From the NCBI GenBank assembly GCA_038198775.1, contig JBBPZV010000043.1, positions 54,405-118,404 on the forward strand: 64,000 bases of DNA, in the 5' to 3' direction. The stretch is from Propionibacteriales bacterium (GTDB lineage Bacteria; Actinomycetota; Actinomycetes; Propionibacteriales; Nocardioidaceae). Positions 961-18,022 of this stretch are shown piece after piece (position 1 is the stretch's first letter; each line of letters opens with the position of its first letter). The notes beneath the pieces are model-generated. The model searched no databases. It worked only from the letters and a program-made list of their open reading frames with translations, and had not been told where the DNA came from. The translations under genes were made by a program, and so were the position numbers.

Positions 961-1344
961 TCAGGCGTCGGATGCCTGCCGGCGCGCCAGGTGGTCCCGG
1001 ATTTCGCGCAGCAGCACGATCTCCTCCGAAGCCGCCTCGGCGGTCACCTCGCCGGGCTTCTTGAAGCGTTCCATGAGCTTGTTGTACGGAACGACGACGA
1101 GGAAATAGACCGCCGCGGCGATGACGAAAAAGGCCACGAGGTCGTTGATGAAGGCGCCGAGCGGGATGCCGTCGACCGTGACGGCGCCGAAGTCCGGACG
1201 GCCTCCGATACTGCCGATGAGCGGCATCATCAGGTTGGTGACGAAGGACGAAACGACGGTGGCGAACGCGGCCCCGACCACGAACGCGACCGCCAGCTCG
1301 ATGAGGTTGCCGCGCACGATGAAGTCCCGAAATCCCTTGAGCAT
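961..1344 (-). CDS. mscL: Large-conductance mechanosensitive channel (mirror copy)
   Basis: 127 aa. The sequence MLKGFRDFIVRGNLIELAVAFVVGAAF...MPLIG... is the hallmark MscL N-terminus and TM1. Confidence 0.9.
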   Translation of the reverse strand: MLKGFRDFIVRGNLIELAVAFVVGAAFATVVSSFVTNLMMPLIGSIGGRPDFGAVTVDGIPLGAFINDLVAFFVIAAAVYFLVVVPYNKLMERFKKPGEVTAEAASEEIVLLREIRDHLARRQASDA

Positions 1345-1388
1345 TGAGCGCCTCCTGACCGCCGGGACTCATCTTGCCAGTGAGCGGT

Positions 1389-2021
1389 TCAGGTCAACAG
1401 CAGGCTGAGCTGCTCGCGTACGGCCGCGTCTGCGAGCTCGAGTGCTGTCGGCTCGTCGACGGCGACCACGACCGCGGTGCCCTCGCTTCCCGCGGTCGCG
1501 GTGGCGGCTGGCGGCATGGCCACGACTCGGACGCCGCTGGCCACCACGTGGGCCGTGCCGCGGGCCTGCGGGTCTGCACCGACCACGTCGACGACGTCCC
1601 CGACGTGGACGAGGCTCTCCGCTGCGGGGTCCGCCACCCGGATCGTGGTGAGAACCGAGCCCTCCGGATAACCGGCGAGCAGGTCCGGCCGCAGCAGTCG
1701 GACGTCTGTCAGCGGCTCACCGGACCGCATCGGAGCGGCCACGACCGAGCCGAGCGTGGACTGGAATCCGGTGAGGGTGCCAGCGGGGACGCCGCCGGCC
1801 GGCCAGGCCACCCGCTCCACGTCTGCTGCCCGCAGGACCGCACCTGCTTGCAGGTCCCGCGCAGCCACCAGCACGGGCGTCGTCGCCGGTGGCGGGGGCC
1901 GGGCCGCCGAGATGGCGGTGACGACGGCCAGCGCGGCGCAGATCGCTGCCAGCGGTCGCCGCCGCACCACCACTGCGCGCCGAACCCCGGTTCCGAACGT
2001 CCGGAATCTGCTGGGGATCAC
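1389..2021 (-). CDS. SAF domain protein (CpaB/RcpC-like N-terminal domain), mirror copy
   Basis: 210 aa with an N-terminal TM segment, followed by VLVAARDLQAGAVLRAADVERVAWPAGGVP...PMRSGEPLTDVRLL, which is a SAF-domain pattern. Confidence 0.6.
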   Translation of the reverse strand: MIPSRFRTFGTGVRRAVVVRRRPLAAICAALAVVTAISAARPPPPATTPVLVAARDLQAGAVLRAADVERVAWPAGGVPAGTLTGFQSTLGSVVAAPMRSGEPLTDVRLLRPDLLAGYPEGSVLTTIRVADPAAESLVHVGDVVDVVGADPQARGTAHVVASGVRVVAMPPAATATAGSEGTAVVVAVDEPTALELADAAVREQLSLLLT

Positions 2022-2069
2022 ACCGCGACGCTAGCGCCGACAGGCCCTCTCGGCCCGCTGTCCACAGGC

Positions 2070-2399
2070 TCAGTCGGCCGAGTCCTTGGCAGGGGAGGAG
2101 GCAGCCTTTGTCGCGGCCGCGCCGGATTGCTTCGGCTTCCCGTCCTTGCCGCCGCCGGTCTCGTTCCCGGTCTTGGCCGGCTCCTGCGAGCCGGTGCCGT
2201 TCTCGGCCGCTGCCGACGCAGCGGCCCGGCTGTCGGTGCGATAGAAGCCGGAGCCCTTGAAGACCACTCCGACCGCACCGAACACCTTGCGAAGCCGACC
2301 CGCACATTCGGGGCACGTCGTCAGCGGGTCGTCGCGGAACGCCTGGCGGGCCTCCAGGGAGTGACCGCAGGATGTGCAGGCGTACTGGTAGGTGGGCAA
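2070..2399 (-). CDS. FmdB family zinc-ribbon protein (mirror copy)
   Basis: TTG start preceded by GAGGAGAG. The sequence (L)PTYQYACTSCGHSLEARQAFRDDPLTTCPECAGRLRKVFGAVGVVFKGSGFYRTD has a CxxC...CxxC ribbon and is followed by a Ser/Ala/Gly-rich tail. Confidence 0.8.
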   Translation of the reverse strand: MPTYQYACTSCGHSLEARQAFRDDPLTTCPECAGRLRKVFGAVGVVFKGSGFYRTDSRAAASAAAENGTGSQEPAKTGNETGGGKDGKPKQSGAAATKAASSPAKDSAD

Positions 2400-2559
2400 C
2401 GTCTCTCCTCGCTGGCACTGCGTCACTTCGACTGCCAATTGTGCCCGAGCGGTCAAGGCCAGGCCCGCCCATCGCCCAGATCTCGGACGGCCTCGCCGCG
2501 GCAGTGCGGCAAGGCTGGCGTTGTCGGCACCGCCGCCACCACCGAGACGCAGCATTCGG

Positions 2560-3219
2560 ATGCTGGGCACGGTCCACAATGGCGCTGTGACCGGGATCGT
2601 CGACCACATCGCCGGCCTGCCGGACCCGGTCGTCTACCTCGTCATCGCCGCGCTCGTCTTCGGTGAGGCGGCGATCTTCTTGGGGTTCGTGCTCCCAGGG
2701 GAGACGGCGGTGCTGCTGGGCGGGGTGCTCGCCGCCGGCGGCCGGCTCACGCTGTCGACGCTGCTGGTGCTGGTGGTCGTGGCGGCGATCGTCGGGGACT
2801 CCGTGGGATACGAGGTGGGCCGGCGGTTCGGACCCCGCGTGCTGGCCTGGCGACCGTTGCGCCGCCACGAGGCCAGACTCGGGGAGGCCCGCACGTACCT
2901 GCGCACCCGCGGCGGATGGGCGGTGATGCTCGGCCGGTGGACCGCGTTCCTACGAGCGGTCATGCCCGGTCTCGCTGGTGCCAGCCGGATGCCGTACCCA
3001 CGGTTCTTGTTCTTCAACGCCGTTGGCGGGGCGGTCTGGGCGGTGGCGATCGCGCTGCTCGGCTACTTCGCGGCGGCCTCCTACGGGCGGGTCCACGCCG
3101 CTCTCGGCCAGATCGGCGCCCTGGTGCTTGTGGCGGTGGTCGTGGTCGTGGTGATCGTCGCTCGCCGCCGACGGCGCGCCGGGCAAACTGGCCGTCCCGG
3201 TAGTCGGCCGGGTCCCTGA
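2560..3219 (+). CDS. DedA family membrane protein (mirror copy)
   Basis: ATG at 2560. The sequence VYLVIAALVFGEAAIFLGFVLPGETAVLLGGVLAA...GR.TAFLRAVMPGLAG is the SNARE-associated/DedA signature. The ORF-track N-terminal extension was rejected. Confidence 0.8.
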   Translation: MLGTVHNGAVTGIVDHIAGLPDPVVYLVIAALVFGEAAIFLGFVLPGETAVLLGGVLAAGGRLTLSTLLVLVVVAAIVGDSVGYEVGRRFGPRVLAWRPLRRHEARLGEARTYLRTRGGWAVMLGRWTAFLRAVMPGLAGASRMPYPRFLFFNAVGGAVWAVAIALLGYFAAASYGRVHAALGQIGALVLVAVVVVVVIVARRRRRAGQTGRPGSRPGP

Positions 3220-4059
3220 TGGGTCCAGCGCCTCGAAGGTGGCGAAGATGTCACCGGCCAGCGGCCGACTTGGCGGGCGGCCCTGCTCGACGAACCACTC
3301 GCGTCGCATCACCTGCCGATAGACCGGCCCTGGCAACCTCAGCAGCAGCCCGAGCGTACGCATACCGACGTCGGCGCTGGCCTGGCTGGCATGCGCCGCC
3401 ATCGCCGCGCGCTTGTTCGACAGGTACTCGCTGACGTCGATGCAGTGCGTCAGCCTCTGGTGCGCGGTGTACGCCGAGGACAGGTCTGGGATGTCGAGCC
3501 GTCGACCCGGCGGCAACCCGATGCGCAGCAGCCGGGCCGCTGCCTGCAGGGGGCGCCGATCCACGGTGGCGGCAAGCACGACCGGCGTCCGGGCGCGCGC
3601 AGCGGCGAGGATGCCGGCCCGGTGCACCATGACATGGTCGGGATGCCCATAACCTCCGGCCGGGTCGTAGCAGGTGAGCACGTCCGCGTTCTCCTCTCGC
3701 AGGATCGCGGCGAGTCGCTCCGCCACCTCCTCGACGTCGGCGCCGGCGAAGCCGTCGGCGGCGGGCGCTGTGCCCGGGTCCACGGACCAGCCCGAGTCGG
3801 CGTAGCCCCAGACGTCCACCCGGGCGCAGCCGATGGCTGCCGCCGAGCGCTGGAGCTCGACGCCGCGGTGCCGGCCGAGGTCCCCGGCGGCGGCTCCGGT
3901 GGCTGCCAGGCCTGCCTCGCCGGCGGTCGCGACCACGAGGACGACGCGGTGCCCCTCGGCGGCCGCCTTCGCCAGCGTGCCGGCGGTGAGCAAGGCTTCG
4001 TCGTCGGGGTGGGCGTGAAACGACACCACGGTCCGGCGGGGGGAGCACCCGGCGCTCAT
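2950..4059 (-). CDS. PIG-L/LmbE family N-acetylglucosaminyl deacetylase (mirror copy). The last ~90 codons are doubtful.
   Basis: VVSFHAHPDDEALLTAGT ... GGYGHPDHVMVH motifs. The C-terminal tail overlaps the convergent dedA gene by 270 nt. Confidence 0.7.
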   Translation of the reverse strand: MSAGCSPRRTVVSFHAHPDDEALLTAGTLAKAAAEGHRVVLVVATAGEAGLAATGAAAGDLGRHRGVELQRSAAAIGCARVDVWGYADSGWSVDPGTAPAADGFAGADVEEVAERLAAILREENADVLTCYDPAGGYGHPDHVMVHRAGILAAARARTPVVLAATVDRRPLQAAARLLRIGLPPGRRLDIPDLSSAYTAHQRLTHCIDVSEYLSNKRAAMAAHASQASADVGMRTLGLLLRLPGPVYRQVMRREWFVEQGRPPSRPLAGDIFATFEALDPSGTRPTTGTASLPGAPSAASDDHHDHDHRHKHQGADLAESGVDPPVGGRREVAEQRDRHRPDRPANGVEEQEPWVRHPAGTSETGHDRS

Positions 4060-5240
4060 GCCGAGGTGGGCAGGACGTCCTCTTCCGGCTCCTCCTCGGC
4101 CGTGACCGCGTCGACCGAGTGGCCGACCACACCCAGCGCCTGGTGGTACAGCTCCTCCGTCCGCTGCCAGGTCTCCTCCCAGGTGTAGCGGGTGGGGATC
4201 CGCCGGTTGTGCGCAGCGAGCGAACAGCGCAGCTCCCGGTCGCGCACCAGCCTGGTCAGCTGGTCGACCATGTCGTCGTCGGAGCCGGCCAGCAGGCCCT
4301 CCTCCCCGTGGGCGATGATCTCCGCGACCCCGCCACGGGTGCTCGCCAGCACCGGGACTCCCGCGCTCCTTGCCTCCAGGGCCGCTATTCCGAACGACTC
4401 CAGCGAGGCCGGAGCAACGTAGACACCCGTGCGGGAGAACAGTGCCGCGATGTCGGCGCGCGGCAGCACACCGGTCAGCCGCACCCAGCCGGCCATGTCG
4501 TGGCGACGCAGGTAGGCCGCAACCTTGGCGTGCTGTGGGCCGTCGCCTACGATGACCGCCTCCATTGCGACGTCGCCGGGCACCGCGGCGCGCACTCGGG
4601 CGAGCATGCGGACCAGCGGCAGCGGCCTTTTGCGACCCGCCAGCCGCATCACGCTGGCGATCACCACCGGATCCCCCGGCTCAGGGACGGCTGCCGGCAG
4701 CTGCCACTGGCTCAGGTCGATCGCGTTGGGCAGCACCGCCACCTCGCGACGCCCCCCCAGCATCCGCGCCAACGGCTGCGCTGCGGTCTCGCTCACCGCC
4801 GACCAGATGATCGGCAGCGATCCGATCCGGATCAGGCTCGCGATGGAGCCGACGAGCGCCCCGTACCCGGTGATCACCGAGTGCATCGTCACGACCACGG
4901 GGATCTCGTTGCGCCCGGCCGCGTGCGCGGCGGCAACTGCCACCGGTGAGGCGATCGAGGCATGGACGTGGACGACGTCGTAGCCGCCTGCGTTCACCGC
5001 CGCCGCGACTCCGGCAGCGGCACGCAGCGTCCGCAGCGTCGGCGAGGCGACATCGGGGCACAGCCTGCGCACCGCCGGCAGGCCGATGCCGACGGGCGCC
5101 TTCCCTGGTATCGGTGGGGTGGCCGTGATCACCTCGACCTCGTGGCCGGCCGCCAGCTGCCGGCAGGCGAGGTCGCGGACGTGCATCTCGATGCCGCCCA
5201 CCCGGGGCAGGTAGCAGTCGCTGACATGGGCGATGCGCAT
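4056..5240 (-). CDS. Glycosyltransferase family 4 (GT-B), mirror copy
   Basis: Start MRIAHVSDCYLPRVGGIEMHV, and a C-terminal ESFGIAALEARSAGVPVLASTRGGVAEII (EX7E). TGATG overlap with the upstream gene. Confidence 0.8.
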   Translation of the reverse strand: MRIAHVSDCYLPRVGGIEMHVRDLACRQLAAGHEVEVITATPPIPGKAPVGIGLPAVRRLCPDVASPTLRTLRAAAGVAAAVNAGGYDVVHVHASIASPVAVAAAHAAGRNEIPVVVTMHSVITGYGALVGSIASLIRIGSLPIIWSAVSETAAQPLARMLGGRREVAVLPNAIDLSQWQLPAAVPEPGDPVVIASVMRLAGRKRPLPLVRMLARVRAAVPGDVAMEAVIVGDGPQHAKVAAYLRRHDMAGWVRLTGVLPRADIAALFSRTGVYVAPASLESFGIAALEARSAGVPVLASTRGGVAEIIAHGEEGLLAGSDDDMVDQLTRLVRDRELRCSLAAHNRRIPTRYTWEETWQRTEELYHQALGVVGHSVDAVTAEEEPEEDVLPTSA

Positions 5241-6316
5241 CAAGCGCCTTCCGCCGTGGCCCAACGTCGAGCGATCAGCGCATGGCGGTGGCTCCAGGCC
5301 CAACCGAGCAGCACGGCGGAGCCGACCGGAATCTCCAGGCCGAAGGTGAAGGCGCGATAGAGCAGCACCCCTGCGGTGCTGAGCACCGGGTCGCCGTGCA
5401 GGGCGATGAGCAGCGAGGTCATGCCGATCTCGGCAAAACCCGTGCCTCCGGGGGTGACGAACGCCAGCGTTAGCACGCGCTCGAGGGCGTACGCGGCGAC
5501 CAGAGGAACCAGCCCGAGGTCGACACCGAGCACATGGAAGGTCAGCCAGAGCAGCTCGAGCTGGAGCAGGCAGTAGCCGATCATGCCGAACGAAAGCGCC
5601 GGCCAGGCCGTTTTGATCCGGCCGACGGCGACCGTACGGAATTCCGCCAGCGCCGCCTGGAATCGGTGCTCCGGCACCCCCGAGCCACCCGGAAGCTGGC
5701 ACCTGACCCGGTCGGCGAACGACCCGAGCCGAGCGGCGGCGTCGGCGTGCACCAGCACCACCGCGGCCAGCAGTACGAGAAGGCCGACCGCCACCATTGC
5801 CGCTGCGGCCGCGACCATCAGGTGCGCCGCCAGGTTGCCGGCCAGCAGCACGAGGAGCAGCCCGGCGATGGCGAGGGCGAACTTGGCGGCGATGTCGCAC
5901 AGGTTCGTGATCGCCGTGTACACGGCGAACGACTGGGCGCTGAACCCCCAGACCCGCGCCATCAGGTAGTTCAGTCCGACGCCCGCGGCGCCGCCGAGGG
6001 GTACGAGTCCGGCCACGGCGCTGCCGGTGAGGTTCAGCGTCAGTGCCCGCCGGTGCGTCAACCTCGGCTGCGCCGCCGTCAAGACGATGGTGTGCACGCA
6101 CAACCCGGCCAGCCAGACGGTGGCCAGCAGTGCCAGGCGACCGGGGGTCAGCGCGGCCAGCGGACTCAGGACGGCACTCCACGGCACCGAGGTCACCCGC
6201 GGGAGTACGGTGACCAGCAGGGCGGCTGCCAGGGCCGCGCCGGCAACGGCGCCGACCACCCGACGGACCCGTCGGGTGGCGGCGCGGGGTTCGCCCTCGA
6301 CCAGCGACGATCTCAC
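5240..6316 (-). CDS. UPF0104 / lysylphosphatidylglycerol-synthase TM-region family membrane protein (mirror copy)
   Basis: 358 aa polytopic membrane protein translationally coupled to the GT4. The family call rests on overall pattern only. Confidence 0.55.
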   Translation of the reverse strand: MRSSLVEGEPRAATRRVRRVVGAVAGAALAAALLVTVLPRVTSVPWSAVLSPLAALTPGRLALLATVWLAGLCVHTIVLTAAQPRLTHRRALTLNLTGSAVAGLVPLGGAAGVGLNYLMARVWGFSAQSFAVYTAITNLCDIAAKFALAIAGLLLVLLAGNLAAHLMVAAAAAMVAVGLLVLLAAVVLVHADAAARLGSFADRVRCQLPGGSGVPEHRFQAALAEFRTVAVGRIKTAWPALSFGMIGYCLLQLELLWLTFHVLGVDLGLVPLVAAYALERVLTLAFVTPGGTGFAEIGMTSLLIALHGDPVLSTAGVLLYRAFTFGLEIPVGSAVLLGWAWSHRHALIARRWATAEGA

Positions 6317-6438
6317 GGGCTCTCCCTCGGGGCCGCCGTCCAGCCGGTGGTCTCCAGCCGGGTACTACATGGTCGATAGTAGCGCCGCGCCGCCGGGACC
6401 GCTCTCCCGCACGGAGGCTACGCAGGGAGAATAGCGGG

Positions 6439-8970
6439 ATGCGCCGGTCCTGGAGAGTCGCCGCGGCCGTCCTGGCGGTCGTGGCGCTCGCATTGGCCGC
6501 GGCCGTGGGCTACGTGGTCGCCTCGGTGCGCCAGTCGTACCCGCTGACGTCGGGGGAGCTCTCGGTCCCTGGTCTGCAGCAGCCGGTGGAGGTGCTGCGC
6601 GACCGAGCCGGCGTCCCGCAGGTCTACGCCGACACCGCACACGACCTGTTCTTCGCGCAGGGGTACGTCAGCGCTCAGGATCGCTTCTTCGAGATGGACT
6701 TCCGCCGGCACGTCACCTCGGGTCGCCTGAGCGAGCTGTTCGGCCCGAGCGCGCTCCAGACCGACATGGTGGTGCGCACCCTGGGGTGGCGCCGGGTCGC
6801 CGAGCGAGAGCTGGCCATCCTCGACCCCATGACGCGCCGCTACCTGCAGGCGTACTCGGACGGCGTCAACGCCTATCTGCGGGGCAAGTCGGGTCCGGAC
6901 CTCTCGTTCGAGTACGCAGTGCTGTCGCTGACCGGGCCCGACTACGCGCCAGAGGGGTGGTCGCCGGCGGACTCCGTGGCCTGGCTCAAGGCGATGGCGT
7001 GGGACCTGCGCAGCAACGTCTCCGACGAGATCGACCGGGCCCTCGCGAATCAGACGCTGTCGCCGACCCAGGTCGAGCAGCTATACCCGCGCTACCCGTA
7101 CACCCGGCACTACCCGATCGTGACCGCGGGACAGGTCGGACAGGCCGGGTTACGTTCCGCCCAGGTCCGCCGGCTGCACCGGTCGGCGGCACGGCTGCCG
7201 CTGCGGGCGGGCCGTGTGATGTCAGCCATCCCCGGCCTGCTCGACGCGGTGCCCGCACTGCTGGGCACCGGGGGCGGGCTCGGGTCGAACTCGTGGGCGG
7301 TGTCCGGGCGGCGCTCGGCGACCGGCGGCCCGATCCTCGCCAACGACCCCCACCTGGCCCCCTCGATGCCCGCCGTGTGGTACCAGATGGGGCTGCACTG
7401 TCGTCACGTCGGCGCCGGCTGCCCCTTCGACGTGTCCGGGTTCACGTTCGCCGGCATGCCCGGGGTCGTCATCGGCCACAACCAGCGCATCGCGTGGGGC
7501 TTGACCACGATGTACGCAGACGTCAGCGACCTCTACCTCGAGCGCGTCGACGACCAGGCCGGGACGTACCTGTTCGACGGCCGGCAACGGCGACTGAGGA
7601 CGCGGCCGGAGTCGATCCGGGTCGAGGGTCGCGACCAGCCGGTAACCATCACCGTACGATCCACCCGGGACGGCCCACTGCTCTCCGACGTCGTCGACGA
7701 GTTCGCCGCCGCCGGCCGAGCGTCGGCGACGGGCCGCAGCACCGGGGCCAACGCGGTGGCGCTGCGGTGGACGGCACTCACCCCCGGCCACACCATGGAC
7801 GCGGTCTTCGGCATCGACAAGGCGACGTCGTGGTCGCGGTTCCGGCAGGCGGCGAAGTCGTTCGACGTGCCGTCTCAGAACCTCGTCTACGCCGACGTCG
7901 ACGGTCACATCGGCTACCAGGCTCCCGGGCAGATCCCGGTCCGATCCGGCTACGACGGCCGCTGGCCGGTGCCCGGCTGGAACCCCCGCTACGACTGGAC
8001 CGGCTACGTCCCCTTCGCGGCGCTGCCGTCGGTCCTCGACCCGGCGTCGGGGTACGTCGTCACCGCCAACCAGGCCGTCGTCGCACCCGGCTACCCCTAC
8101 CGGCTCGGAGGTGACACCTCGTACGGCTACCGCAGTCAGCGGATTATCGAGCTGCTCAACGCCAAGGCCACCCACGACGTCGCCGACATGGCGGCCCTGC
8201 AGCGTGACAGCTACAACGCCAACGCCGCCGAGCTGGTGCCGTACCTGCGACGGATCGAGGTTTCGACGACCTACTACCGGCAGGGCCAGCGGGTGTTGCG
8301 CGGCTGGGACTTCACTCAGCCGGCGGACTCGGGCGCCGCGGCGTACTTCAACGTGGTCTGGCGGGACCTGCTGGCGCGCACGTTCCACGACCAGCTGCCG
8401 CCGGCGGTGTGGCCGGACGGCGACGAGCGGTGGTTCGAGGTGGTGCGCCGGCTGCTGCACGACCCGACCAGCCCCTGGTGGGACGACGTCAACACCGACG
8501 CCGTCGTGGAGACGCGGAACGACATCCTGCTGGCGGCGCTGGAGGAGGGTCGCGACGACATGACGCGGTTGCAGGCCCGGGATCCCACCCAGTGGAGCTG
8601 GGGACACCTGCACCGGCTCGAGCTGGTCAACCCGACCCTCGGGACCTCCGGTACCGGGCTCGTCGAGTCGCTGTTCAACCGCGGGCCCTACCAGCTCGGT
8701 GGCGGGAGCGGCACCGTCGACGCCACAGCGTGGGACGCGGCGCAGGGGTTCGCCGTGACCGCCGTGCCGTCTATGCGGATGGTGGTGTCGCTGGCCGACC
8801 TCGACAGCTCGCGCTGGGCGATGATCGCAGGTGAGTCGGGGCACGCGTACTCCGCCCACTACAGCGACCAGATGCCGCTGTGGGTCGACGGCGAGACCCG
8901 GCCGTGGGCCTTCAGCCGGGGCGCCGTCGAAGCGTCGACCCAGGACCGGCTGGTGTTGCAGCCGTCCTGA
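6439..8970 (+). CDS. Penicillin acylase family Ntn-hydrolase (mirror copy)
   Basis: 843 aa with an N-terminal TM anchor. It contains RFFEMDFRR and the GLGSNSWAVSGRRSATGGPILANDPHL nucleophile region. Confidence 0.85.
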   Translation: MRRSWRVAAAVLAVVALALAAAVGYVVASVRQSYPLTSGELSVPGLQQPVEVLRDRAGVPQVYADTAHDLFFAQGYVSAQDRFFEMDFRRHVTSGRLSELFGPSALQTDMVVRTLGWRRVAERELAILDPMTRRYLQAYSDGVNAYLRGKSGPDLSFEYAVLSLTGPDYAPEGWSPADSVAWLKAMAWDLRSNVSDEIDRALANQTLSPTQVEQLYPRYPYTRHYPIVTAGQVGQAGLRSAQVRRLHRSAARLPLRAGRVMSAIPGLLDAVPALLGTGGGLGSNSWAVSGRRSATGGPILANDPHLAPSMPAVWYQMGLHCRHVGAGCPFDVSGFTFAGMPGVVIGHNQRIAWGLTTMYADVSDLYLERVDDQAGTYLFDGRQRRLRTRPESIRVEGRDQPVTITVRSTRDGPLLSDVVDEFAAAGRASATGRSTGANAVALRWTALTPGHTMDAVFGIDKATSWSRFRQAAKSFDVPSQNLVYADVDGHIGYQAPGQIPVRSGYDGRWPVPGWNPRYDWTGYVPFAALPSVLDPASGYVVTANQAVVAPGYPYRLGGDTSYGYRSQRIIELLNAKATHDVADMAALQRDSYNANAAELVPYLRRIEVSTTYYRQGQRVLRGWDFTQPADSGAAAYFNVVWRDLLARTFHDQLPPAVWPDGDERWFEVVRRLLHDPTSPWWDDVNTDAVVETRNDILLAALEEGRDDMTRLQARDPTQWSWGHLHRLELVNPTLGTSGTGLVESLFNRGPYQLGGGSGTVDATAWDAAQGFAVTAVPSMRMVVSLADLDSSRWAMIAGESGHAYSAHYSDQMPLWVDGETRPWAFSRGAVEASTQDRLVLQPS

Positions 8971-8997
8971 GCCCCGACCTGCTGCCGTGCTTGCGCT

Positions 8998-9597
8998 CTA
9001 GGGTTGGCGTTCCTGCCCGGAAGCCAACCGGTCGGGCGCGACGTCGTCGGCCGCTGGAGCGGGTACGGCAAGCGTCCGGGTCGGGGTCACAATCACATGC
9101 ACGCGCTGGTCGTGGGCGCTGGCAGGGACGGCCTCGAGCAGCTCGCCGTCGTGGAGGAGCAGTACCCGCAGCGTCGCGCGCCCGCAGCGGGCAAGAGCCC
9201 GGTCGTACGAGCCGCCGCCTCGACCCAGCCGGCCGCCGGCCACGTCGCCCGCCAGGCCGGGGCAGACGACGACGCGGGCCCGGGCGACCGTCCCGACGCC
9301 GAGGCGCTCGTCCGGGGCATCGGCCGGCACCCAGTCCAGGTCGCGGTCGGGAAGCAGCACGGGCAGCAGCACCCGGTGACCGAGCGCTGCGAGGCCCGCC
9401 AACAGCGGCCCGGTGCCCGGCTCGGTGCCGAGGGACGAGAACGCAGCGACCGTCGCCGGCTCGCGCAGCTCGGGGAGCCCCAGCACCCGGTGGGCGATCG
9501 CCTCGCTGACGGCGCAGCGATCCTTCGGCGACATGGCGAGACGGGTCGCCTGGACGTACAGGCGCAACTGCGCCTTGGCGTCGACAACGTCGGGCAC
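8998..9597 (-). CDS. 5-formyltetrahydrofolate cyclo-ligase (mirror copy)
   Basis: GTG start chosen so that the CDS does not cross the palindrome axis. GRLGRGGGSYDR motif. Confidence 0.7.
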   Translation of the reverse strand: MPDVVDAKAQLRLYVQATRLAMSPKDRCAVSEAIAHRVLGLPELREPATVAAFSSLGTEPGTGPLLAGLAALGHRVLLPVLLPDRDLDWVPADAPDERLGVGTVARARVVVCPGLAGDVAGGRLGRGGGSYDRALARCGRATLRVLLLHDGELLEAVPASAHDQRVHVIVTPTRTLAVPAPAADDVAPDRLASGQERQP

Positions 9598-9649
9598 GCG
9601 GTCACGGTAGTGCGAGGTTGGATGTCTTGCCGCTTCCGATCGGCCGGTG

Positions 9650-9717
9650 CTTCCAATGGCGCAGCGGCACTTCCAACGGGTTGCAACCCGTTGGAAGTGC
9701 CGCTGCGCCATTGGAAG
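9650..9717. repeat. Copy A of the three-box element, made perfectly symmetric by the palindrome (box3'-box2' | box2-box3)
   Basis: CTTCCAATGG(9650-9659) ... CTTCCAACGG(9670-9679) GGTTGCAA CCGTTGGAAG(9688-9697) ... CCATTGGAAG(9708-9717). Confidence 0.9.
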
Positions 9718-9769
9718 CACCGGCCGATCGGAAGCGGCAAGACATCCAACCTCGCACTACCGTGACCGC

Positions 9770-10369
9770 GTGCCCGACGTTGTCGACGCCAAGGCGCAGT
9801 TGCGCCTGTACGTCCAGGCGACCCGTCTCGCCATGTCGCCGAAGGATCGCTGCGCCGTCAGCGAGGCGATCGCCCACCGGGTGCTGGGGCTCCCCGAGCT
9901 GCGCGAGCCGGCGACGGTCGCTGCGTTCTCGTCCCTCGGCACCGAGCCGGGCACCGGGCCGCTGTTGGCGGGCCTCGCAGCGCTCGGTCACCGGGTGCTG
10001 CTGCCCGTGCTGCTTCCCGACCGCGACCTGGACTGGGTGCCGGCCGATGCCCCGGACGAGCGCCTCGGCGTCGGGACGGTCGCCCGGGCCCGCGTCGTCG
10101 TCTGCCCCGGCCTGGCGGGCGACGTGGCCGGCGGCCGGCTGGGTCGAGGCGGCGGCTCGTACGACCGGGCTCTTGCCCGCTGCGGGCGCGCGACGCTGCG
10201 GGTACTGCTCCTCCACGACGGCGAGCTGCTCGAGGCCGTCCCTGCCAGCGCCCACGACCAGCGCGTGCATGTGATTGTGACCCCGACCCGGACGCTTGCC
10301 GTACCCGCTCCAGCGGCCGACGACGTCGCGCCCGACCGGTTGGCTTCCGGGCAGGAACGCCAACCCTAG
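9770..10369 (+). CDS. 5-formyltetrahydrofolate cyclo-ligase
   Basis: GTG at 9770 (VPDVVDAKAQLR...), with GRLGRGGGSYDR and about 199 aa. The ORF-track start at 9647 lies across the artefactual axis. Confidence 0.7.
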   Translation: MPDVVDAKAQLRLYVQATRLAMSPKDRCAVSEAIAHRVLGLPELREPATVAAFSSLGTEPGTGPLLAGLAALGHRVLLPVLLPDRDLDWVPADAPDERLGVGTVARARVVVCPGLAGDVAGGRLGRGGGSYDRALARCGRATLRVLLLHDGELLEAVPASAHDQRVHVIVTPTRTLAVPAPAADDVAPDRLASGQERQP

Positions 10370-10396
10370 AGCGCAAGCACGGCAGCAGGTCGGGGC

Positions 10397-12928
10397 TCAG
10401 GACGGCTGCAACACCAGCCGGTCCTGGGTCGACGCTTCGACGGCGCCCCGGCTGAAGGCCCACGGCCGGGTCTCGCCGTCGACCCACAGCGGCATCTGGT
10501 CGCTGTAGTGGGCGGAGTACGCGTGCCCCGACTCACCTGCGATCATCGCCCAGCGCGAGCTGTCGAGGTCGGCCAGCGACACCACCATCCGCATAGACGG
10601 CACGGCGGTCACGGCGAACCCCTGCGCCGCGTCCCACGCTGTGGCGTCGACGGTGCCGCTCCCGCCACCGAGCTGGTAGGGCCCGCGGTTGAACAGCGAC
10701 TCGACGAGCCCGGTACCGGAGGTCCCGAGGGTCGGGTTGACCAGCTCGAGCCGGTGCAGGTGTCCCCAGCTCCACTGGGTGGGATCCCGGGCCTGCAACC
10801 GCGTCATGTCGTCGCGACCCTCCTCCAGCGCCGCCAGCAGGATGTCGTTCCGCGTCTCCACGACGGCGTCGGTGTTGACGTCGTCCCACCAGGGGCTGGT
10901 CGGGTCGTGCAGCAGCCGGCGCACCACCTCGAACCACCGCTCGTCGCCGTCCGGCCACACCGCCGGCGGCAGCTGGTCGTGGAACGTGCGCGCCAGCAGG
11001 TCCCGCCAGACCACGTTGAAGTACGCCGCGGCGCCCGAGTCCGCCGGCTGAGTGAAGTCCCAGCCGCGCAACACCCGCTGGCCCTGCCGGTAGTAGGTCG
11101 TCGAAACCTCGATCCGTCGCAGGTACGGCACCAGCTCGGCGGCGTTGGCGTTGTAGCTGTCACGCTGCAGGGCCGCCATGTCGGCGACGTCGTGGGTGGC
11201 CTTGGCGTTGAGCAGCTCGATAATCCGCTGACTGCGGTAGCCGTACGAGGTGTCACCTCCGAGCCGGTAGGGGTAGCCGGGTGCGACGACGGCCTGGTTG
11301 GCGGTGACGACGTACCCCGACGCCGGGTCGAGGACCGACGGCAGCGCCGCGAAGGGGACGTAGCCGGTCCAGTCGTAGCGGGGGTTCCAGCCGGGCACCG
11401 GCCAGCGGCCGTCGTAGCCGGATCGGACCGGGATCTGCCCGGGAGCCTGGTAGCCGATGTGACCGTCGACGTCGGCGTAGACGAGGTTCTGAGACGGCAC
11501 GTCGAACGACTTCGCCGCCTGCCGGAACCGCGACCACGACGTCGCCTTGTCGATGCCGAAGACCGCGTCCATGGTGTGGCCGGGGGTGAGTGCCGTCCAC
11601 CGCAGCGCCACCGCGTTGGCCCCGGTGCTGCGGCCCGTCGCCGACGCTCGGCCGGCGGCGGCGAACTCGTCGACGACGTCGGAGAGCAGTGGGCCGTCCC
11701 GGGTGGATCGTACGGTGATGGTTACCGGCTGGTCGCGACCCTCGACCCGGATCGACTCCGGCCGCGTCCTCAGTCGCCGTTGCCGGCCGTCGAACAGGTA
11801 CGTCCCGGCCTGGTCGTCGACGCGCTCGAGGTAGAGGTCGCTGACGTCTGCGTACATCGTGGTCAAGCCCCACGCGATGCGCTGGTTGTGGCCGATGACG
11901 ACCCCGGGCATGCCGGCGAACGTGAACCCGGACACGTCGAAGGGGCAGCCGGCGCCGACGTGACGACAGTGCAGCCCCATCTGGTACCACACGGCGGGCA
12001 TCGAGGGGGCCAGGTGGGGGTCGTTGGCGAGGATCGGGCCGCCGGTCGCCGAGCGCCGCCCGGACACCGCCCACGAGTTCGACCCGAGCCCGCCCCCGGT
12101 GCCCAGCAGTGCGGGCACCGCGTCGAGCAGGCCGGGGATGGCTGACATCACACGGCCCGCCCGCAGCGGCAGCCGTGCCGCCGACCGGTGCAGCCGGCGG
12201 ACCTGGGCGGAACGTAACCCGGCCTGTCCGACCTGTCCCGCGGTCACGATCGGGTAGTGCCGGGTGTACGGGTAGCGCGGGTATAGCTGCTCGACCTGGG
12301 TCGGCGACAGCGTCTGATTCGCGAGGGCCCGGTCGATCTCGTCGGAGACGTTGCTGCGCAGGTCCCACGCCATCGCCTTGAGCCAGGCCACGGAGTCCGC
12401 CGGCGACCACCCCTCTGGCGCGTAGTCGGGCCCGGTCAGCGACAGCACTGCGTACTCGAACGAGAGGTCCGGACCCGACTTGCCCCGCAGATAGGCGTTG
12501 ACGCCGTCCGAGTACGCCTGCAGGTAGCGGCGCGTCATGGGGTCGAGGATGGCCAGCTCTCGCTCGGCGACCCGGCGCCACCCCAGGGTGCGCACCACCA
12601 TGTCGGTCTGGAGCGCGCTCGGGCCGAACAGCTCGCTCAGGCGACCCGAGGTGACGTGCCGGCGGAAGTCCATCTCGAAGAAGCGATCCTGAGCGCTGAC
12701 GTACCCCTGCGCGAAGAACAGGTCGTGTGCGGTGTCGGCGTAGACCTGCGGGACGCCGGCTCGGTCGCGCAGCACCTCCACCGGCTGCTGCAGACCAGGG
12801 ACCGAGAGCTCCCCCGACGTCAGCGGGTACGACTGGCGCACCGAGGCGACCACGTAGCCCACGGCCGCGGCCAATGCGAGCGCCACGACCGCCAGGACGG
12901 CCGCGGCGACTCTCCAGGACCGGCGCAT
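10397..12928 (-). CDS. Penicillin acylase family Ntn-hydrolase
   Basis: As for 6439..8970 (identical sequence). Confidence 0.85.
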   Translation of the reverse strand: MRRSWRVAAAVLAVVALALAAAVGYVVASVRQSYPLTSGELSVPGLQQPVEVLRDRAGVPQVYADTAHDLFFAQGYVSAQDRFFEMDFRRHVTSGRLSELFGPSALQTDMVVRTLGWRRVAERELAILDPMTRRYLQAYSDGVNAYLRGKSGPDLSFEYAVLSLTGPDYAPEGWSPADSVAWLKAMAWDLRSNVSDEIDRALANQTLSPTQVEQLYPRYPYTRHYPIVTAGQVGQAGLRSAQVRRLHRSAARLPLRAGRVMSAIPGLLDAVPALLGTGGGLGSNSWAVSGRRSATGGPILANDPHLAPSMPAVWYQMGLHCRHVGAGCPFDVSGFTFAGMPGVVIGHNQRIAWGLTTMYADVSDLYLERVDDQAGTYLFDGRQRRLRTRPESIRVEGRDQPVTITVRSTRDGPLLSDVVDEFAAAGRASATGRSTGANAVALRWTALTPGHTMDAVFGIDKATSWSRFRQAAKSFDVPSQNLVYADVDGHIGYQAPGQIPVRSGYDGRWPVPGWNPRYDWTGYVPFAALPSVLDPASGYVVTANQAVVAPGYPYRLGGDTSYGYRSQRIIELLNAKATHDVADMAALQRDSYNANAAELVPYLRRIEVSTTYYRQGQRVLRGWDFTQPADSGAAAYFNVVWRDLLARTFHDQLPPAVWPDGDERWFEVVRRLLHDPTSPWWDDVNTDAVVETRNDILLAALEEGRDDMTRLQARDPTQWSWGHLHRLELVNPTLGTSGTGLVESLFNRGPYQLGGGSGTVDATAWDAAQGFAVTAVPSMRMVVSLADLDSSRWAMIAGESGHAYSAHYSDQMPLWVDGETRPWAFSRGAVEASTQDRLVLQPS

Positions 12929-13050
12929 CCCGCTATTCTCCCTGCGTAGCCTCCGTGCGGGAGAGCGGTCCCGGCGGCGCGGCGCTACTATCGACCATGT
13001 AGTACCCGGCTGGAGACCACCGGCTGGACGGCGGCCCCGAGGGAGAGCCC

Positions 13051-14127
13051 GTGAGATCGTCGCTGGTCGAGGGCGAACCCCGCGCCGCCACCCGACGGGT
13101 CCGTCGGGTGGTCGGCGCCGTTGCCGGCGCGGCCCTGGCAGCCGCCCTGCTGGTCACCGTACTCCCGCGGGTGACCTCGGTGCCGTGGAGTGCCGTCCTG
13201 AGTCCGCTGGCCGCGCTGACCCCCGGTCGCCTGGCACTGCTGGCCACCGTCTGGCTGGCCGGGTTGTGCGTGCACACCATCGTCTTGACGGCGGCGCAGC
13301 CGAGGTTGACGCACCGGCGGGCACTGACGCTGAACCTCACCGGCAGCGCCGTGGCCGGACTCGTACCCCTCGGCGGCGCCGCGGGCGTCGGACTGAACTA
13401 CCTGATGGCGCGGGTCTGGGGGTTCAGCGCCCAGTCGTTCGCCGTGTACACGGCGATCACGAACCTGTGCGACATCGCCGCCAAGTTCGCCCTCGCCATC
13501 GCCGGGCTGCTCCTCGTGCTGCTGGCCGGCAACCTGGCGGCGCACCTGATGGTCGCGGCCGCAGCGGCAATGGTGGCGGTCGGCCTTCTCGTACTGCTGG
13601 CCGCGGTGGTGCTGGTGCACGCCGACGCCGCCGCTCGGCTCGGGTCGTTCGCCGACCGGGTCAGGTGCCAGCTTCCGGGTGGCTCGGGGGTGCCGGAGCA
13701 CCGATTCCAGGCGGCGCTGGCGGAATTCCGTACGGTCGCCGTCGGCCGGATCAAAACGGCCTGGCCGGCGCTTTCGTTCGGCATGATCGGCTACTGCCTG
13801 CTCCAGCTCGAGCTGCTCTGGCTGACCTTCCATGTGCTCGGTGTCGACCTCGGGCTGGTTCCTCTGGTCGCCGCGTACGCCCTCGAGCGCGTGCTAACGC
13901 TGGCGTTCGTCACCCCCGGAGGCACGGGTTTTGCCGAGATCGGCATGACCTCGCTGCTCATCGCCCTGCACGGCGACCCGGTGCTCAGCACCGCAGGGGT
14001 GCTGCTCTATCGCGCCTTCACCTTCGGCCTGGAGATTCCGGTCGGCTCCGCCGTGCTGCTCGGTTGGGCCTGGAGCCACCGCCATGCGCTGATCGCTCGA
14101 CGTTGGGCCACGGCGGAAGGCGCTTGA
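13051..14127 (+). CDS. UPF0104 / lysylphosphatidylglycerol-synthase TM-region family membrane protein
   Basis: As for 5240..6316 (identical sequence). Confidence 0.55.
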   Translation: MRSSLVEGEPRAATRRVRRVVGAVAGAALAAALLVTVLPRVTSVPWSAVLSPLAALTPGRLALLATVWLAGLCVHTIVLTAAQPRLTHRRALTLNLTGSAVAGLVPLGGAAGVGLNYLMARVWGFSAQSFAVYTAITNLCDIAAKFALAIAGLLLVLLAGNLAAHLMVAAAAAMVAVGLLVLLAAVVLVHADAAARLGSFADRVRCQLPGGSGVPEHRFQAALAEFRTVAVGRIKTAWPALSFGMIGYCLLQLELLWLTFHVLGVDLGLVPLVAAYALERVLTLAFVTPGGTGFAEIGMTSLLIALHGDPVLSTAGVLLYRAFTFGLEIPVGSAVLLGWAWSHRHALIARRWATAEGA

Positions 14128-15311
14128 TGCGCATCGCCCATGTCAGCGACTGCTACCTGCCCCGGGTGGGCGGCATCGAGATGCACGTCCGCGACCTCGC
14201 CTGCCGGCAGCTGGCGGCCGGCCACGAGGTCGAGGTGATCACGGCCACCCCACCGATACCAGGGAAGGCGCCCGTCGGCATCGGCCTGCCGGCGGTGCGC
14301 AGGCTGTGCCCCGATGTCGCCTCGCCGACGCTGCGGACGCTGCGTGCCGCTGCCGGAGTCGCGGCGGCGGTGAACGCAGGCGGCTACGACGTCGTCCACG
14401 TCCATGCCTCGATCGCCTCACCGGTGGCAGTTGCCGCCGCGCACGCGGCCGGGCGCAACGAGATCCCCGTGGTCGTGACGATGCACTCGGTGATCACCGG
14501 GTACGGGGCGCTCGTCGGCTCCATCGCGAGCCTGATCCGGATCGGATCGCTGCCGATCATCTGGTCGGCGGTGAGCGAGACCGCAGCGCAGCCGTTGGCG
14601 CGGATGCTGGGGGGGCGTCGCGAGGTGGCGGTGCTGCCCAACGCGATCGACCTGAGCCAGTGGCAGCTGCCGGCAGCCGTCCCTGAGCCGGGGGATCCGG
14701 TGGTGATCGCCAGCGTGATGCGGCTGGCGGGTCGCAAAAGGCCGCTGCCGCTGGTCCGCATGCTCGCCCGAGTGCGCGCCGCGGTGCCCGGCGACGTCGC
14801 AATGGAGGCGGTCATCGTAGGCGACGGCCCACAGCACGCCAAGGTTGCGGCCTACCTGCGTCGCCACGACATGGCCGGCTGGGTGCGGCTGACCGGTGTG
14901 CTGCCGCGCGCCGACATCGCGGCACTGTTCTCCCGCACGGGTGTCTACGTTGCTCCGGCCTCGCTGGAGTCGTTCGGAATAGCGGCCCTGGAGGCAAGGA
15001 GCGCGGGAGTCCCGGTGCTGGCGAGCACCCGTGGCGGGGTCGCGGAGATCATCGCCCACGGGGAGGAGGGCCTGCTGGCCGGCTCCGACGACGACATGGT
15101 CGACCAGCTGACCAGGCTGGTGCGCGACCGGGAGCTGCGCTGTTCGCTCGCTGCGCACAACCGGCGGATCCCCACCCGCTACACCTGGGAGGAGACCTGG
15201 CAGCGGACGGAGGAGCTGTACCACCAGGCGCTGGGTGTGGTCGGCCACTCGGTCGACGCGGTCACGGCCGAGGAGGAGCCGGAAGAGGACGTCCTGCCCA
15301 CCTCGGCATGA
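14127..15311 (+). CDS. Glycosyltransferase family 4
   Basis: As for 4056..5240. The 314-codon N-terminal extension in the ORF track (13185..) overlaps the upstream gene and was rejected. Confidence 0.8.
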   Translation: MRIAHVSDCYLPRVGGIEMHVRDLACRQLAAGHEVEVITATPPIPGKAPVGIGLPAVRRLCPDVASPTLRTLRAAAGVAAAVNAGGYDVVHVHASIASPVAVAAAHAAGRNEIPVVVTMHSVITGYGALVGSIASLIRIGSLPIIWSAVSETAAQPLARMLGGRREVAVLPNAIDLSQWQLPAAVPEPGDPVVIASVMRLAGRKRPLPLVRMLARVRAAVPGDVAMEAVIVGDGPQHAKVAAYLRRHDMAGWVRLTGVLPRADIAALFSRTGVYVAPASLESFGIAALEARSAGVPVLASTRGGVAEIIAHGEEGLLAGSDDDMVDQLTRLVRDRELRCSLAAHNRRIPTRYTWEETWQRTEELYHQALGVVGHSVDAVTAEEEPEEDVLPTSA

Positions 15312-16417
15312 GCGCCGGGTGCTCCCCCCGCCGGACCGTGGTGTCGTTTCACGCCCACCCCGACGACGAAGCCTTGCTCACCGCCGGCACGCTGGCGAAG
15401 GCGGCCGCCGAGGGGCACCGCGTCGTCCTCGTGGTCGCGACCGCCGGCGAGGCAGGCCTGGCAGCCACCGGAGCCGCCGCCGGGGACCTCGGCCGGCACC
15501 GCGGCGTCGAGCTCCAGCGCTCGGCGGCAGCCATCGGCTGCGCCCGGGTGGACGTCTGGGGCTACGCCGACTCGGGCTGGTCCGTGGACCCGGGCACAGC
15601 GCCCGCCGCCGACGGCTTCGCCGGCGCCGACGTCGAGGAGGTGGCGGAGCGACTCGCCGCGATCCTGCGAGAGGAGAACGCGGACGTGCTCACCTGCTAC
15701 GACCCGGCCGGAGGTTATGGGCATCCCGACCATGTCATGGTGCACCGGGCCGGCATCCTCGCCGCTGCGCGCGCCCGGACGCCGGTCGTGCTTGCCGCCA
15801 CCGTGGATCGGCGCCCCCTGCAGGCAGCGGCCCGGCTGCTGCGCATCGGGTTGCCGCCGGGTCGACGGCTCGACATCCCAGACCTGTCCTCGGCGTACAC
15901 CGCGCACCAGAGGCTGACGCACTGCATCGACGTCAGCGAGTACCTGTCGAACAAGCGCGCGGCGATGGCGGCGCATGCCAGCCAGGCCAGCGCCGACGTC
16001 GGTATGCGTACGCTCGGGCTGCTGCTGAGGTTGCCAGGGCCGGTCTATCGGCAGGTGATGCGACGCGAGTGGTTCGTCGAGCAGGGCCGCCCGCCAAGTC
16101 GGCCGCTGGCCGGTGACATCTTCGCCACCTTCGAGGCGCTGGACCCATCAGGGACCCGGCCGACTACCGGGACGGCCAGTTTGCCCGGCGCGCCGTCGGC
16201 GGCGAGCGACGATCACCACGACCACGACCACCGCCACAAGCACCAGGGCGCCGATCTGGCCGAGAGCGGCGTGGACCCGCCCGTAGGAGGCCGCCGCGAA
16301 GTAGCCGAGCAGCGCGATCGCCACCGCCCAGACCGCCCCGCCAACGGCGTTGAAGAACAAGAACCGTGGGTACGGCATCCGGCTGGCACCAGCGAGACCG
16401 GGCATGACCGCTCGTAG
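15308..16417 (+). CDS. PIG-L/LmbE family deacetylase (C-terminal ~90 codons doubtful)
   Basis: As for 2950..4059. ATGA-type 4-nt overlap with the GT4 stop. Confidence 0.7.
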   Translation: MSAGCSPRRTVVSFHAHPDDEALLTAGTLAKAAAEGHRVVLVVATAGEAGLAATGAAAGDLGRHRGVELQRSAAAIGCARVDVWGYADSGWSVDPGTAPAADGFAGADVEEVAERLAAILREENADVLTCYDPAGGYGHPDHVMVHRAGILAAARARTPVVLAATVDRRPLQAAARLLRIGLPPGRRLDIPDLSSAYTAHQRLTHCIDVSEYLSNKRAAMAAHASQASADVGMRTLGLLLRLPGPVYRQVMRREWFVEQGRPPSRPLAGDIFATFEALDPSGTRPTTGTASLPGAPSAASDDHHDHDHRHKHQGADLAESGVDPPVGGRREVAEQRDRHRPDRPANGVEEQEPWVRHPAGTSETGHDRS

Positions 16418-16807
16418 GAACGCGGTCCACCGGCCGAGCATCACCGCCCATCCGCCGCGGGTGCGCAGGTACGTGCGGGCCTCCCCGAGTCTGGCCTCGT
16501 GGCGGCGCAACGGTCGCCAGGCCAGCACGCGGGGTCCGAACCGCCGGCCCACCTCGTATCCCACGGAGTCCCCGACGATCGCCGCCACGACCACCAGCAC
16601 CAGCAGCGTCGACAGCGTGAGCCGGCCGCCGGCGGCGAGCACCCCGCCCAGCAGCACCGCCGTCTCCCCTGGGAGCACGAACCCCAAGAAGATCGCCGCC
16701 TCACCGAAGACGAGCGCGGCGATGACGAGGTAGACGACCGGGTCCGGCAGGCCGGCGATGTGGTCGACGATCCCGGTCACAGCGCCATTGTGGACCGTGC
16801 CCAGCAT
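16148..16807 (-). CDS. DedA family membrane protein
   Basis: As for 2560..3219. Confidence 0.8.
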   Translation of the reverse strand: MLGTVHNGAVTGIVDHIAGLPDPVVYLVIAALVFGEAAIFLGFVLPGETAVLLGGVLAAGGRLTLSTLLVLVVVAAIVGDSVGYEVGRRFGPRVLAWRPLRRHEARLGEARTYLRTRGGWAVMLGRWTAFLRAVMPGLAGASRMPYPRFLFFNAVGGAVWAVAIALLGYFAAASYGRVHAALGQIGALVLVAVVVVVVIVARRRRRAGQTGRPGSRPGP

Positions 16808-16967
16808 CCGAATGCTGCGTCTCGGTGGTGGCGGCGGTGCCGACAACGCCAGCCTTGCCGCACTGCCGCGGCGAGGCCGTCCGAGATCTGGGCGATGGGC
16901 GGGCCTGGCCTTGACCGCTCGGGCACAATTGGCAGTCGAAGTGACGCAGTGCCAGCGAGGAGAGACG

Positions 16968-17297
16968 TTGCCCACCTACCAGTACGCCTGCACATCCTGC
17001 GGTCACTCCCTGGAGGCCCGCCAGGCGTTCCGCGACGACCCGCTGACGACGTGCCCCGAATGTGCGGGTCGGCTTCGCAAGGTGTTCGGTGCGGTCGGAG
17101 TGGTCTTCAAGGGCTCCGGCTTCTATCGCACCGACAGCCGGGCCGCTGCGTCGGCAGCGGCCGAGAACGGCACCGGCTCGCAGGAGCCGGCCAAGACCGG
17201 GAACGAGACCGGCGGCGGCAAGGACGGGAAGCCGAAGCAATCCGGCGCGGCCGCGACAAAGGCTGCCTCCTCCCCTGCCAAGGACTCGGCCGACTGA
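16968..17297 (+). CDS. FmdB family zinc-ribbon protein
   Basis: As for 2070..2399. Confidence 0.8.
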   Translation: MPTYQYACTSCGHSLEARQAFRDDPLTTCPECAGRLRKVFGAVGVVFKGSGFYRTDSRAAASAAAENGTGSQEPAKTGNETGGGKDGKPKQSGAAATKAASSPAKDSAD

Positions 17298-17345
17298 GCC
17301 TGTGGACAGCGGGCCGAGAGGGCCTGTCGGCGCTAGCGTCGCGGT

Positions 17346-17978: not shown

Positions 17979-18022
17979 ACCGCTCACTGGCAAGATGAGT
18001 CCCGGCGGTCAGGAGGCGCTCA

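Follow-up and report, generated by a model that had tools for sequence, protein, structure and literature searches.

A palindrome of at least 19 kb in a Nocardioidaceae contig as a probable fold-back artefact nucleated at a dispersed palindromic repeat

The 64,000-nt stretch of DNA analysed here (the window), which comes from a bacterium of the Nocardioidaceae, opens with a large perfect palindrome. This palindrome, the one notable inverted repeat of the window, has a length of 19 kb or more. Very probably it does not exist in the chromosome and is instead a fold-back artefact, for which one copy (copy A) of a dispersed repeat, with its natural and perfect ~42-bp palindrome, served as the nucleus. 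Among the observations that lead to this reading are that natural copies of the repeat are never symmetric beyond ~21-27 nt and that two relatives have galU directly upstream of the folate gene that lies next to the axis. The two arms of the palindrome (Table 1) are 100% complementary and are separated by a loop of 0 nt, and exactly complementary arms without a spacer are what would be expected of a fold-back artefact. Because the left arm meets the start of the window, the total of ~19 kb is a minimum.

The axis of the palindrome and the repeat copies in the window

The axis lies within gttg/caac, between positions 9683 and 9684, in the context CACTTCCAACGG GTTG/CAAC CCGTTGGAAGTG (here and below, the slash marks an axis or dyad), and is separated by 4 nt from box 2 of copy A (CCGTTGGAAGTG). 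In the consensus of the repeat family described below, the dyad is located between GTTC and GAAC, likewise 4 nt 5' of box 2, and the axis in the window coincides with it to the base. Reading the DNA without database searches (hereafter, the sequence-only reading) had placed the axis on the dyad of a natural repeat, and comparison with the family consensus confirms this placement to the nucleotide. The turn-around is therefore situated at a pre-existing inverted repeat, as expected of a fold-back artefact, with the native left half of this repeat being a reconstruction (see below).

A random chimeric junction, such as one caused by a missed adapter or by read-through from template to complement at a fragment end, might have come to lie beside the boxes by chance, and inverted chimeras are common in long-read libraries (PMC13141652). 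However, simple arithmetic over the 54.3 kb of unique sequence gives a chance of only ~5e-5 that a random junction would fall exactly on any of the three dyads in the window; the fold-back axes of two other contigs (L063 and L057, see below) are also located on the same dyad; and a native locus without an inverted repeat predicts an end at 9684 for the read-derived contig L007, which ends at 9675. A random junction thus appears very unlikely, and the argument made against it in the sequence-only reading is strengthened by the exact coincidence with the dyad, the replicate fold-backs and the end of the read-derived contig.

Three copies of the repeat (A, B and C), all of them intergenic, are present in the window. 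The pattern CCRTTKGAAGYR, with at most one mismatch, had 10 matches in the window versus 1.7 expected, and none of 100 shuffled sequences (0/100) reached 10. When the window was searched with a profile (nhmmer) built only from independent JGI metagenome copies, copies A, B and C were detected with E-values of 1.3e-14, 5e-10 and 1.4e-16, respectively, and this metagenome-derived profile found no fourth copy in the window. The match to copy A takes in box 1 and what follows it (model positions 25-91), with hairpin 1 missing, and that to copy C covers positions 7-92. As assembled in the window, copy A is symmetric and has box 3 on both sides, whereas natural copies are asymmetric, box 3 on their right side being matched by hairpin 1 on their left. 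In copy B, CACTCCCCATGG (24551-24562) is followed after an 8-nt gap by CCGTTGGAAGCG (24571-24582) and then by CCATTGGAAGTG (24591-24602), and copy C contains CACTCCCAGTGG (43683-43694), again an 8-nt gap, CCGTTTGAAGTG (43703-43714) and CCATTGGAAGTA (43723-43734). The arrangement of an inverted box, 8 nt and a direct box that had been described for these two copies, and the coordinates given for all of the boxes, were found to be correct, and a further direct box follows after another 8 nt. Copies B and C, which have imperfect centres, were assembled through without fold-back and can be taken as internal controls. Neither of them shows a significant single-strand fold (z = 0.26 and -1.1, respectively), so that the earlier description of the repeat as hairpin-forming holds for the family consensus and for the reconstructed native copy A but not for copies B and C.

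Table 1. Coordinates of the palindrome arms, repeat features and genes next to the axis in the window
Feature	Position	Strand	Remarks
Left arm of the palindrome	1..9683	.	Exact reverse complement of 9684-19366; read as an artefactual, non-native copy
Right arm of the palindrome	9684..19366	+	Read as genuine chromosomal sequence
Mirror image of box 3	9648..9659	-	Non-native; natural copies have hairpin 1 (CCCTATCCCACG-TTCA-CGTGGGATAGGG) there
Putative native 42-bp perfect palindrome, AGCGGCACTTCCAACGGGTTG/CAACCCGTTGGAAGTGCCGCT	9663..9704	.	Hairpin 2 of copy A, dyad 9683/9684; left half reconstructed
Mirror image of box 2	9668..9679	-	Occupies the slot of box 1 (CACTTCCAAYGG) in natural copies
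Copy A, box 2, CCGTTGGAAGTG	9688..9699	+	Box match
Copy A, box 3, CCATTGGAAGCA	9708..9719	+	Direct repeat of box 2, with an 8-nt spacer between them
5-Formyltetrahydrofolate cyclo-ligase gene	9770..10369	+	GTG start, PF01812, 199 aa; exact product P0121 (100% identity)
Penicillin acylase family gene	10397..12928	-	Served to identify relatives
Copy B	24545..24604	+	Degenerate, intergenic; hairpin 1 lost, box 1 CACTCCCCATGG, spacer non-palindromic
Copy C	43651..43736	+	Full length, degenerate, intergenic; hairpin 1 present, box 1 CACTCCCAGTGG, spacer non-palindromic

A dispersed family of ~88-nt repeats in related Nocardioidaceae

JGI metagenome contigs were scanned for the box-N8-box arrangement (112 loci, L009-L120), and an unrelated low-GC group was removed. 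Contigs of related Nocardioidaceae contain 85 distinct, GC-rich copies of the repeat, whose consensus of ~88 nt is TG-tCCCtaTCCCAcG-TTCA-CgTGGgAtnGGG-n-CACTTCCAATGG-GTTC/GAAC-CCATTGGAAGTG-aCCCTcAG-CCATTGGAAGTa. Its architecture comprises hairpin 1, then hairpin 2 (formed by box 1 and box 2) and then box 3, which directly repeats box 2. In the consensus of hairpin 2, box 1 is an exact inverted repeat of box 2 over an 8-nt spacer that is itself palindromic, and the core of the element is a near-perfect palindrome of ~42 bp, A-GGGG-CACTTCCAATGG-GTTC/GAAC-CCATTGGAAGTG-CCCC-T. Since box 1 is able to pair with either box 2 or box 3, alternative structures are possible. Examples of family members are found at L044:5305-5392 and L068:12644-12731.

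Of the 85 copies, 68-84 keep the pairing across the dyad at most positions up to 20 nt from it; positions 3, 7 and 17 are paired less often (50-69 copies), and the number drops to 37 copies at 21 nt, 12 at 22 nt and 4 at 23 nt. Compensatory changes are evident at position 15, with an A-T pair in 70 copies and a G-C pair in 7, and at position 17, where T-A, G-C and A-T pairs occur in 26, 16 and 7 copies, respectively. The longest perfect arm among natural copies is 27 nt (16, 20 and 21 nt being common values), compared with at least 9683 nt in the window. Folded as single-stranded DNA, the consensus gives -30.4 kcal/mol (z = -7.8). Thus, there are many dispersed and conserved copies (85 in JGI contigs and 3 in the window) that share a stem-loop with compensatory changes, and the element is a real family and, in kind, a REP/MITE-like dispersed palindromic repeat.

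Similar to REP/BIME and MITE-like repeats, the element is short (~88 nt), occurs in many copies, appears on crude ORF calls to be mostly intergenic where its neighbourhood is resolved, and has conserved stem-loops with compensatory substitutions. It differs from them in having two adjacent hairpins plus a third, direct box, in the tandem expansion of a box into 14-15-nt units in some copies, and in the lack of a match in Rfam, where no family reached the gathering score and the only matches were at chance level (E = 0.24 or weaker). As far as could be checked, the family is undescribed, though of a known kind. On crude GC3-based ORF calls, 22 copies with resolved neighbours are intergenic (9 convergent, 10 tandem and 3 divergent), and overlap with an ORF was seen in 3 of the 25 neighbour-resolved copies, without strong orientation bias; 71 copies have no resolved neighbours. 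The main source samples of the copies (Ga0183260, Ga0136612, Ga0136617, Ga0136620 and Ga0136632) also contain the nearest relatives of the window genes, and the family appears, from the contigs surveyed, to be abundant in a lineage of soil Nocardioidaceae. In the organism of the window itself, the finding of three copies, two of which are degenerate, suggests decay of the family in this lineage.

Some copies have, in place of a single 3' box, a tandem array of 14-15-nt units (L014:528-600 and L070:7362-7431, as well as L086, L061 and L056); the array in L014 consists of 5.1 units of GCCCGCTTCCAATG, and that in L070 of ~4.9 units. Other identities of the boxes were also considered. A transcription-factor operator or an ECF/SigR-type promoter was discarded, given that the genes neighbouring copies A, B and C are functionally unrelated and that the boxes belong to a structured repeat with dispersed copies. 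The idea of a known RNA family was dropped in view of the Rfam result, and a tRNA-like T-arm, which had been prompted by GGTTCGAACC, was noted as a resemblance only.

Native state of copy A

A Logan read-derived contig (L007, from run SRR24807094) is identical to positions 9675-12385 of the window; it ends 9 nt left of the axis, and those 9 nt match the mirror image. In a k=31 graph simulation, the predicted contig end was compared among scenarios that differed in the native arms and in the presence of fold-back reads. The predicted end was 9669 with fold-back reads only and 9684 with fold-back reads added to a native locus without an inverted repeat, and it was 9675 both for native perfect arms of 21 nt, with or without fold-back reads, and for a native arm of 9 nt together with fold-back reads. 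The simulation also showed that at k=31 fold-back reads add no new k-mers where the native arms are at least 16 nt long. The observed end at 9675, which is a single contig end that could in principle also result from coverage drop-out, thus indicates that there is a native inverted repeat at the axis and that the read graph contains a second, non-mirrored left flank.

As 21 nt is the limit of pairing in the family, the simplest reading is that copy A natively contains a perfect palindrome of 42 bp (Table 1), for which the predicted DNA hairpin has -25.7 kcal/mol (z = -10). We infer that the left half of copy A natively has box 1, with arms of 21 nt, followed outwards by hairpin 1, beyond which the native left neighbour is probably galU. 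The sequence-only reading had predicted a native box 1 in the slot now filled by the mirror image of box 2 (9668-9679), and this prediction is upheld indirectly by the symmetry of boxes 1 and 2 in the consensus, by the 9 mirrored nucleotides in L007 and by the position at which that contig ends. It had also described the native repeat as short and imperfect, whereas the repeat is most likely perfect and ~42 bp long; the basis of that description was copies B and C, which are degenerate and have no significant fold.

Several searches were directed at the native left flank. Look-ups of the exact products of the penicillin acylase gene and of a galU candidate (P0245, probably from the same MAG and recorded in NCBI only, on a 24,928-nt contig) returned no record. 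A strain contig (L005), 98.3% identical to the right arm over 3.8 kb, stops 87 nt beyond the acylase gene and short of the copy A locus, and a scan of genome contigs yielded relatives at 45% identity or less. Two relatives discussed below (L006 and L008) carry no copy of the element and thus inform on synteny but not on the native sequence. A literature search on run SRR24807094 found nothing.

Genes around the axis

Copy A is located in the intergenic region upstream of the cyclo-ligase gene, whose exact product (P0121) has records from two sources, a 128,174-nt NCBI contig and the Logan assembly of SRR24807094. Pfam domains of the right arm include 5-FTHF cyclo-ligase, penicillin acylase, LPG-synthase TM protein, GT4 glycosyltransferase, PIG-L, DedA/VTT, SAF, MscL and TetR, and an MFS gene is also present; all of these are ordinary chromosomal genes. 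In the two relatives (L006 and L008), the cyclo-ligase gene faces galU (UDPGP)-moeA-moaC divergently, and the gap between the cyclo-ligase gene and galU is 35 nt in both of them (compared at L006:12554-13179 and L008:6272-6307). Considering that the stretch upstream of this gene in the window, which contains the repeat, measures at least 86 nt, versus 35 nt in these relatives, the element looks like an insertion into a divergent promoter region.

This context bears on the possibility that the axis is the covalently closed hairpin telomere of a linear replicon, with reads running around the closed end. Reading around protelomerase-type hairpin telomeres, as found in Borrelia, the linear chromosome of Agrobacterium and phage N15, gives a loopless palindrome, and the perfect arms of the window are consistent with such an origin. 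However, the axis lies inside a dispersed repeat with 85 distinct copies at internal positions, and it is placed between two genes (cyclo-ligase and galU) that are adjacent in relatives, whose sequences continue into galU-moeA-moaC. In addition, the Logan graph points to a different left flank that branches off at 9675, the genes of the arm are chromosomal housekeeping genes, and no protelomerase-like match was found among the proteins scanned, which came from the arm region and from the vicinity of copies B and C. Linear replicons of actinobacteria are known to have ends capped by terminal proteins, not hairpins. A hairpin telomere is thus extremely unlikely.

Some other features of the window were noted in passing. 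A large regulator with an adenylate/guanylate cyclase domain, a STAND ATPase and TPR repeats is encoded at 21859-24498 (-), just downstream of copy B, and a nearby gene at 26182-27180 (+) codes for a protein that contains a cyclic-nucleotide-binding domain. A bacterial type IB topoisomerase gene (Pfam Topoisom_I and Top1B_N_bact) is located at 44610-45659 (+). Tandem repeats of 27 nt (GACGTGATC...GGC...) occur in coding sequence at 56797-56915 and 57595-57632 and probably encode 9-residue repeats of the calcium-binding type, and a stretch of 181 nt with 72% complementarity ties 47587-47767 to 57102-57282, which are two regions of the 27-nt-repeat type on opposite strands.

Fold-backs at the same repeat in other assemblies

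Contigs that fold back at the same dyad were also detected in the metagenome assemblies. A JGI contig of 8992 nt (L063, Ga0136612_10002043) is its own reverse complement, and its axis is located on the dyad of the same family, flanked by boxes at 4461-4492 (-) and 4501-4532 (+). In the same assembly, another contig (L098) carries the native, non-mirrored left flank of this locus, in which unique sequence is followed by hairpin 1 and box 1. The overlap of L098 with the arm of L063 amounts to 87 nt at 100% identity, after which L098 stops. The same native locus is present in other samples (L119 and L091), so that for L063 a native, non-mirrored junction coexists with the fold-back in all three of these contigs, and a further contig (L104) extends the arm of L063 past its end. 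The native perfect arm at this locus is 16 nt (32 bp). A second copy of the repeat in L063, at 895, has the imperfect centre GTTG/GAAC and was traversed normally. L098 and L063 share 103 nt, and the end of L119 lies 99 nt from the left boundary of the palindrome; these figures suggest, though not conclusively, overlaps of k-mer size.

A less clear case is L057 (Ga0136632_10003135, 5922-6191), in which the last 135 nt fold back at the same dyad with 6 mismatches, all within the element; here the contig has probably folded back onto a variant path. In 15 instances, versus 7.6 expected, a contig was found to end no more than 160 nt from the dyad. On the other hand, JGI contigs contain ~44 natural copies that have perfect arms of 16 nt or longer and were assembled correctly, which implies that the palindrome alone does not force a fold-back and that fold-back is occasional. 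Symmetric copies with box 3 on both sides are restricted to fold-back contigs. Taken together, these cases show that fold-back contigs have been nucleated more than once, and in assemblies independent of each other, by a single repeat family.

The recurrence is also relevant to whether the inverted duplication could have arisen in vivo, in at least part of the population, through a double-strand break or replication stall next to the palindrome followed by resection and fold-back priming by the 3' strand, or through replication of a cruciform or hairpin-capped end. A turn-around located at the dyad of a short palindrome of natural origin fits this geometry, the predicted hairpin (-25.7 kcal/mol) is strong, and an in vivo inverted duplication at a 246-bp interrupted palindrome is known from E. 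coli sbcCD recA mutants (PMC3315005). The same geometry is part of models of fold-back priming in yeast and human cells. Like such duplications in E. coli, yeast, human cells and Streptomyces plasmids, the window shows a large inverted duplication on a short natural palindrome; unlike them, it is known from an assembled contig, and the read-derived graph points to a coexisting native flank, whereas the in vivo cases were shown on physical DNA, in mutants or after breaks. Palindromes of Streptomyces linear plasmids were reportedly described by Qin and Cohen in 2000.

Several findings speak against an in vivo origin of the palindrome in the window. Its arms have zero divergence and no spacer; the Logan contig ends at 9675 and not at 9669, implying a non-mirrored left flank in the reads; no natural copy among the 85 is symmetric past 27 nt; and the duplication would mirror housekeeping genes and break the conserved link between cyclo-ligase and galU. 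Moreover, the occurrence of the same fold-back at a different locus in an unrelated assembly, beside a native contig, points to a systematic technical cause and thus argues against an in vivo event. We regard in vivo duplication as improbable. The related proposal that real molecules exist in a subpopulation, in which the 42-bp palindrome extrudes at replication or at a break and primes a fold-back that leads to a large inverted duplication, is very unlikely; if it were true, palindromic rearrangements in wild actinobacteria would have a natural hotspot in this repeat family.

Discussion

A fold-back artefact nucleated at the natural palindrome of copy A could have been produced either in silico or in vitro. 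In the first of two possible routes (a), which concerns the assembler, a perfect palindrome would form a self-reverse-complementary path to which both the right flank R and its reverse complement, rc(R), attach, and the assembler might output rc(R)+R in place of L+R, where L is the left flank. Because such a path is its own reverse complement in the graph, the assembler can fold back without any chimeric molecule. In the second route (b), which concerns the reads, single-stranded or nicked DNA might snap into a hairpin of about -26 kcal/mol, whose 3' end would be extended, or the polymerase might switch template at the tip; chimeric fold-back reads would result, and the assembler would then follow them. 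Given that palindromes of 32-42 bp are shorter than the large k of common assemblers, some weight should be given to real chimeric reads or to carry-over from assembly stages with a small k. The sequence-only reading had proposed snap-back or template-switch priming, either in vitro or in vivo. Its central point, a non-random junction seeded by a hairpin, has been borne out, but it omitted the assembler route, and its in vivo option is made unlikely by the read graph and by natural copies whose symmetry ends at 27 nt or less.

Both routes have counterparts in the literature. Contigs from SPAdes that are palindromic over their whole length are known and have been regarded as errors of assembly (PMC9455707), and the SPAdes authors noted that chimeric connections of the 'double-strand hairpin' type can yield palindromic sequence (bioRxiv 10.1101/420208). 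The palindrome in the window resembles such palindromic contigs of de Bruijn or SPAdes assemblies in its perfect arms and in the duplication of all genes of the arm. Its left arm runs to the start of the window, and L063, in which the whole contig is its own reverse complement as in the SPAdes cases, stands in a JGI metagenome assembly beside a correct native contig. The palindrome in the window differs from the SPAdes reports in that its turn-around can be tied to a specific natural palindrome of a repeat family. With regard to the reads, chimeric reads with inverted repeats make up 0.18-7.33% of the reads in nanopore ligation libraries (PMC13141652), and during Illumina library preparation chimeric reads arise at natural inverted repeats and palindromes according to the PDSM model (PMC10908179). 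Fold-back chimeric reads share with the window a turn-around at a short natural inverted repeat and halves that are exactly complementary; they are typically a minority of molecules, so that native ones would coexist with them, and the likeness to the window case is drawn from assembled contigs. Inverted chimeras of phi29 multiple displacement amplification were reportedly described by Lasken and Stockwell in 2007.

A practical consequence is that a deposited metagenome-assembled contig appears to carry a mirrored duplicate of at least 9.7 kb, which inflates the genome size and duplicates genes, and the mirrored arm conceals which gene, probably galU, is the actual neighbour of the folate gene. 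Perfect arms, the lack of a loop and an axis that coincides with the dyad of a palindromic repeat of dispersed occurrence may serve as a diagnostic for fold-backs of this kind. The biological content is modest: the palindrome itself is very probably not a genomic feature, and the two-hairpin repeat of ~88 nt is real.
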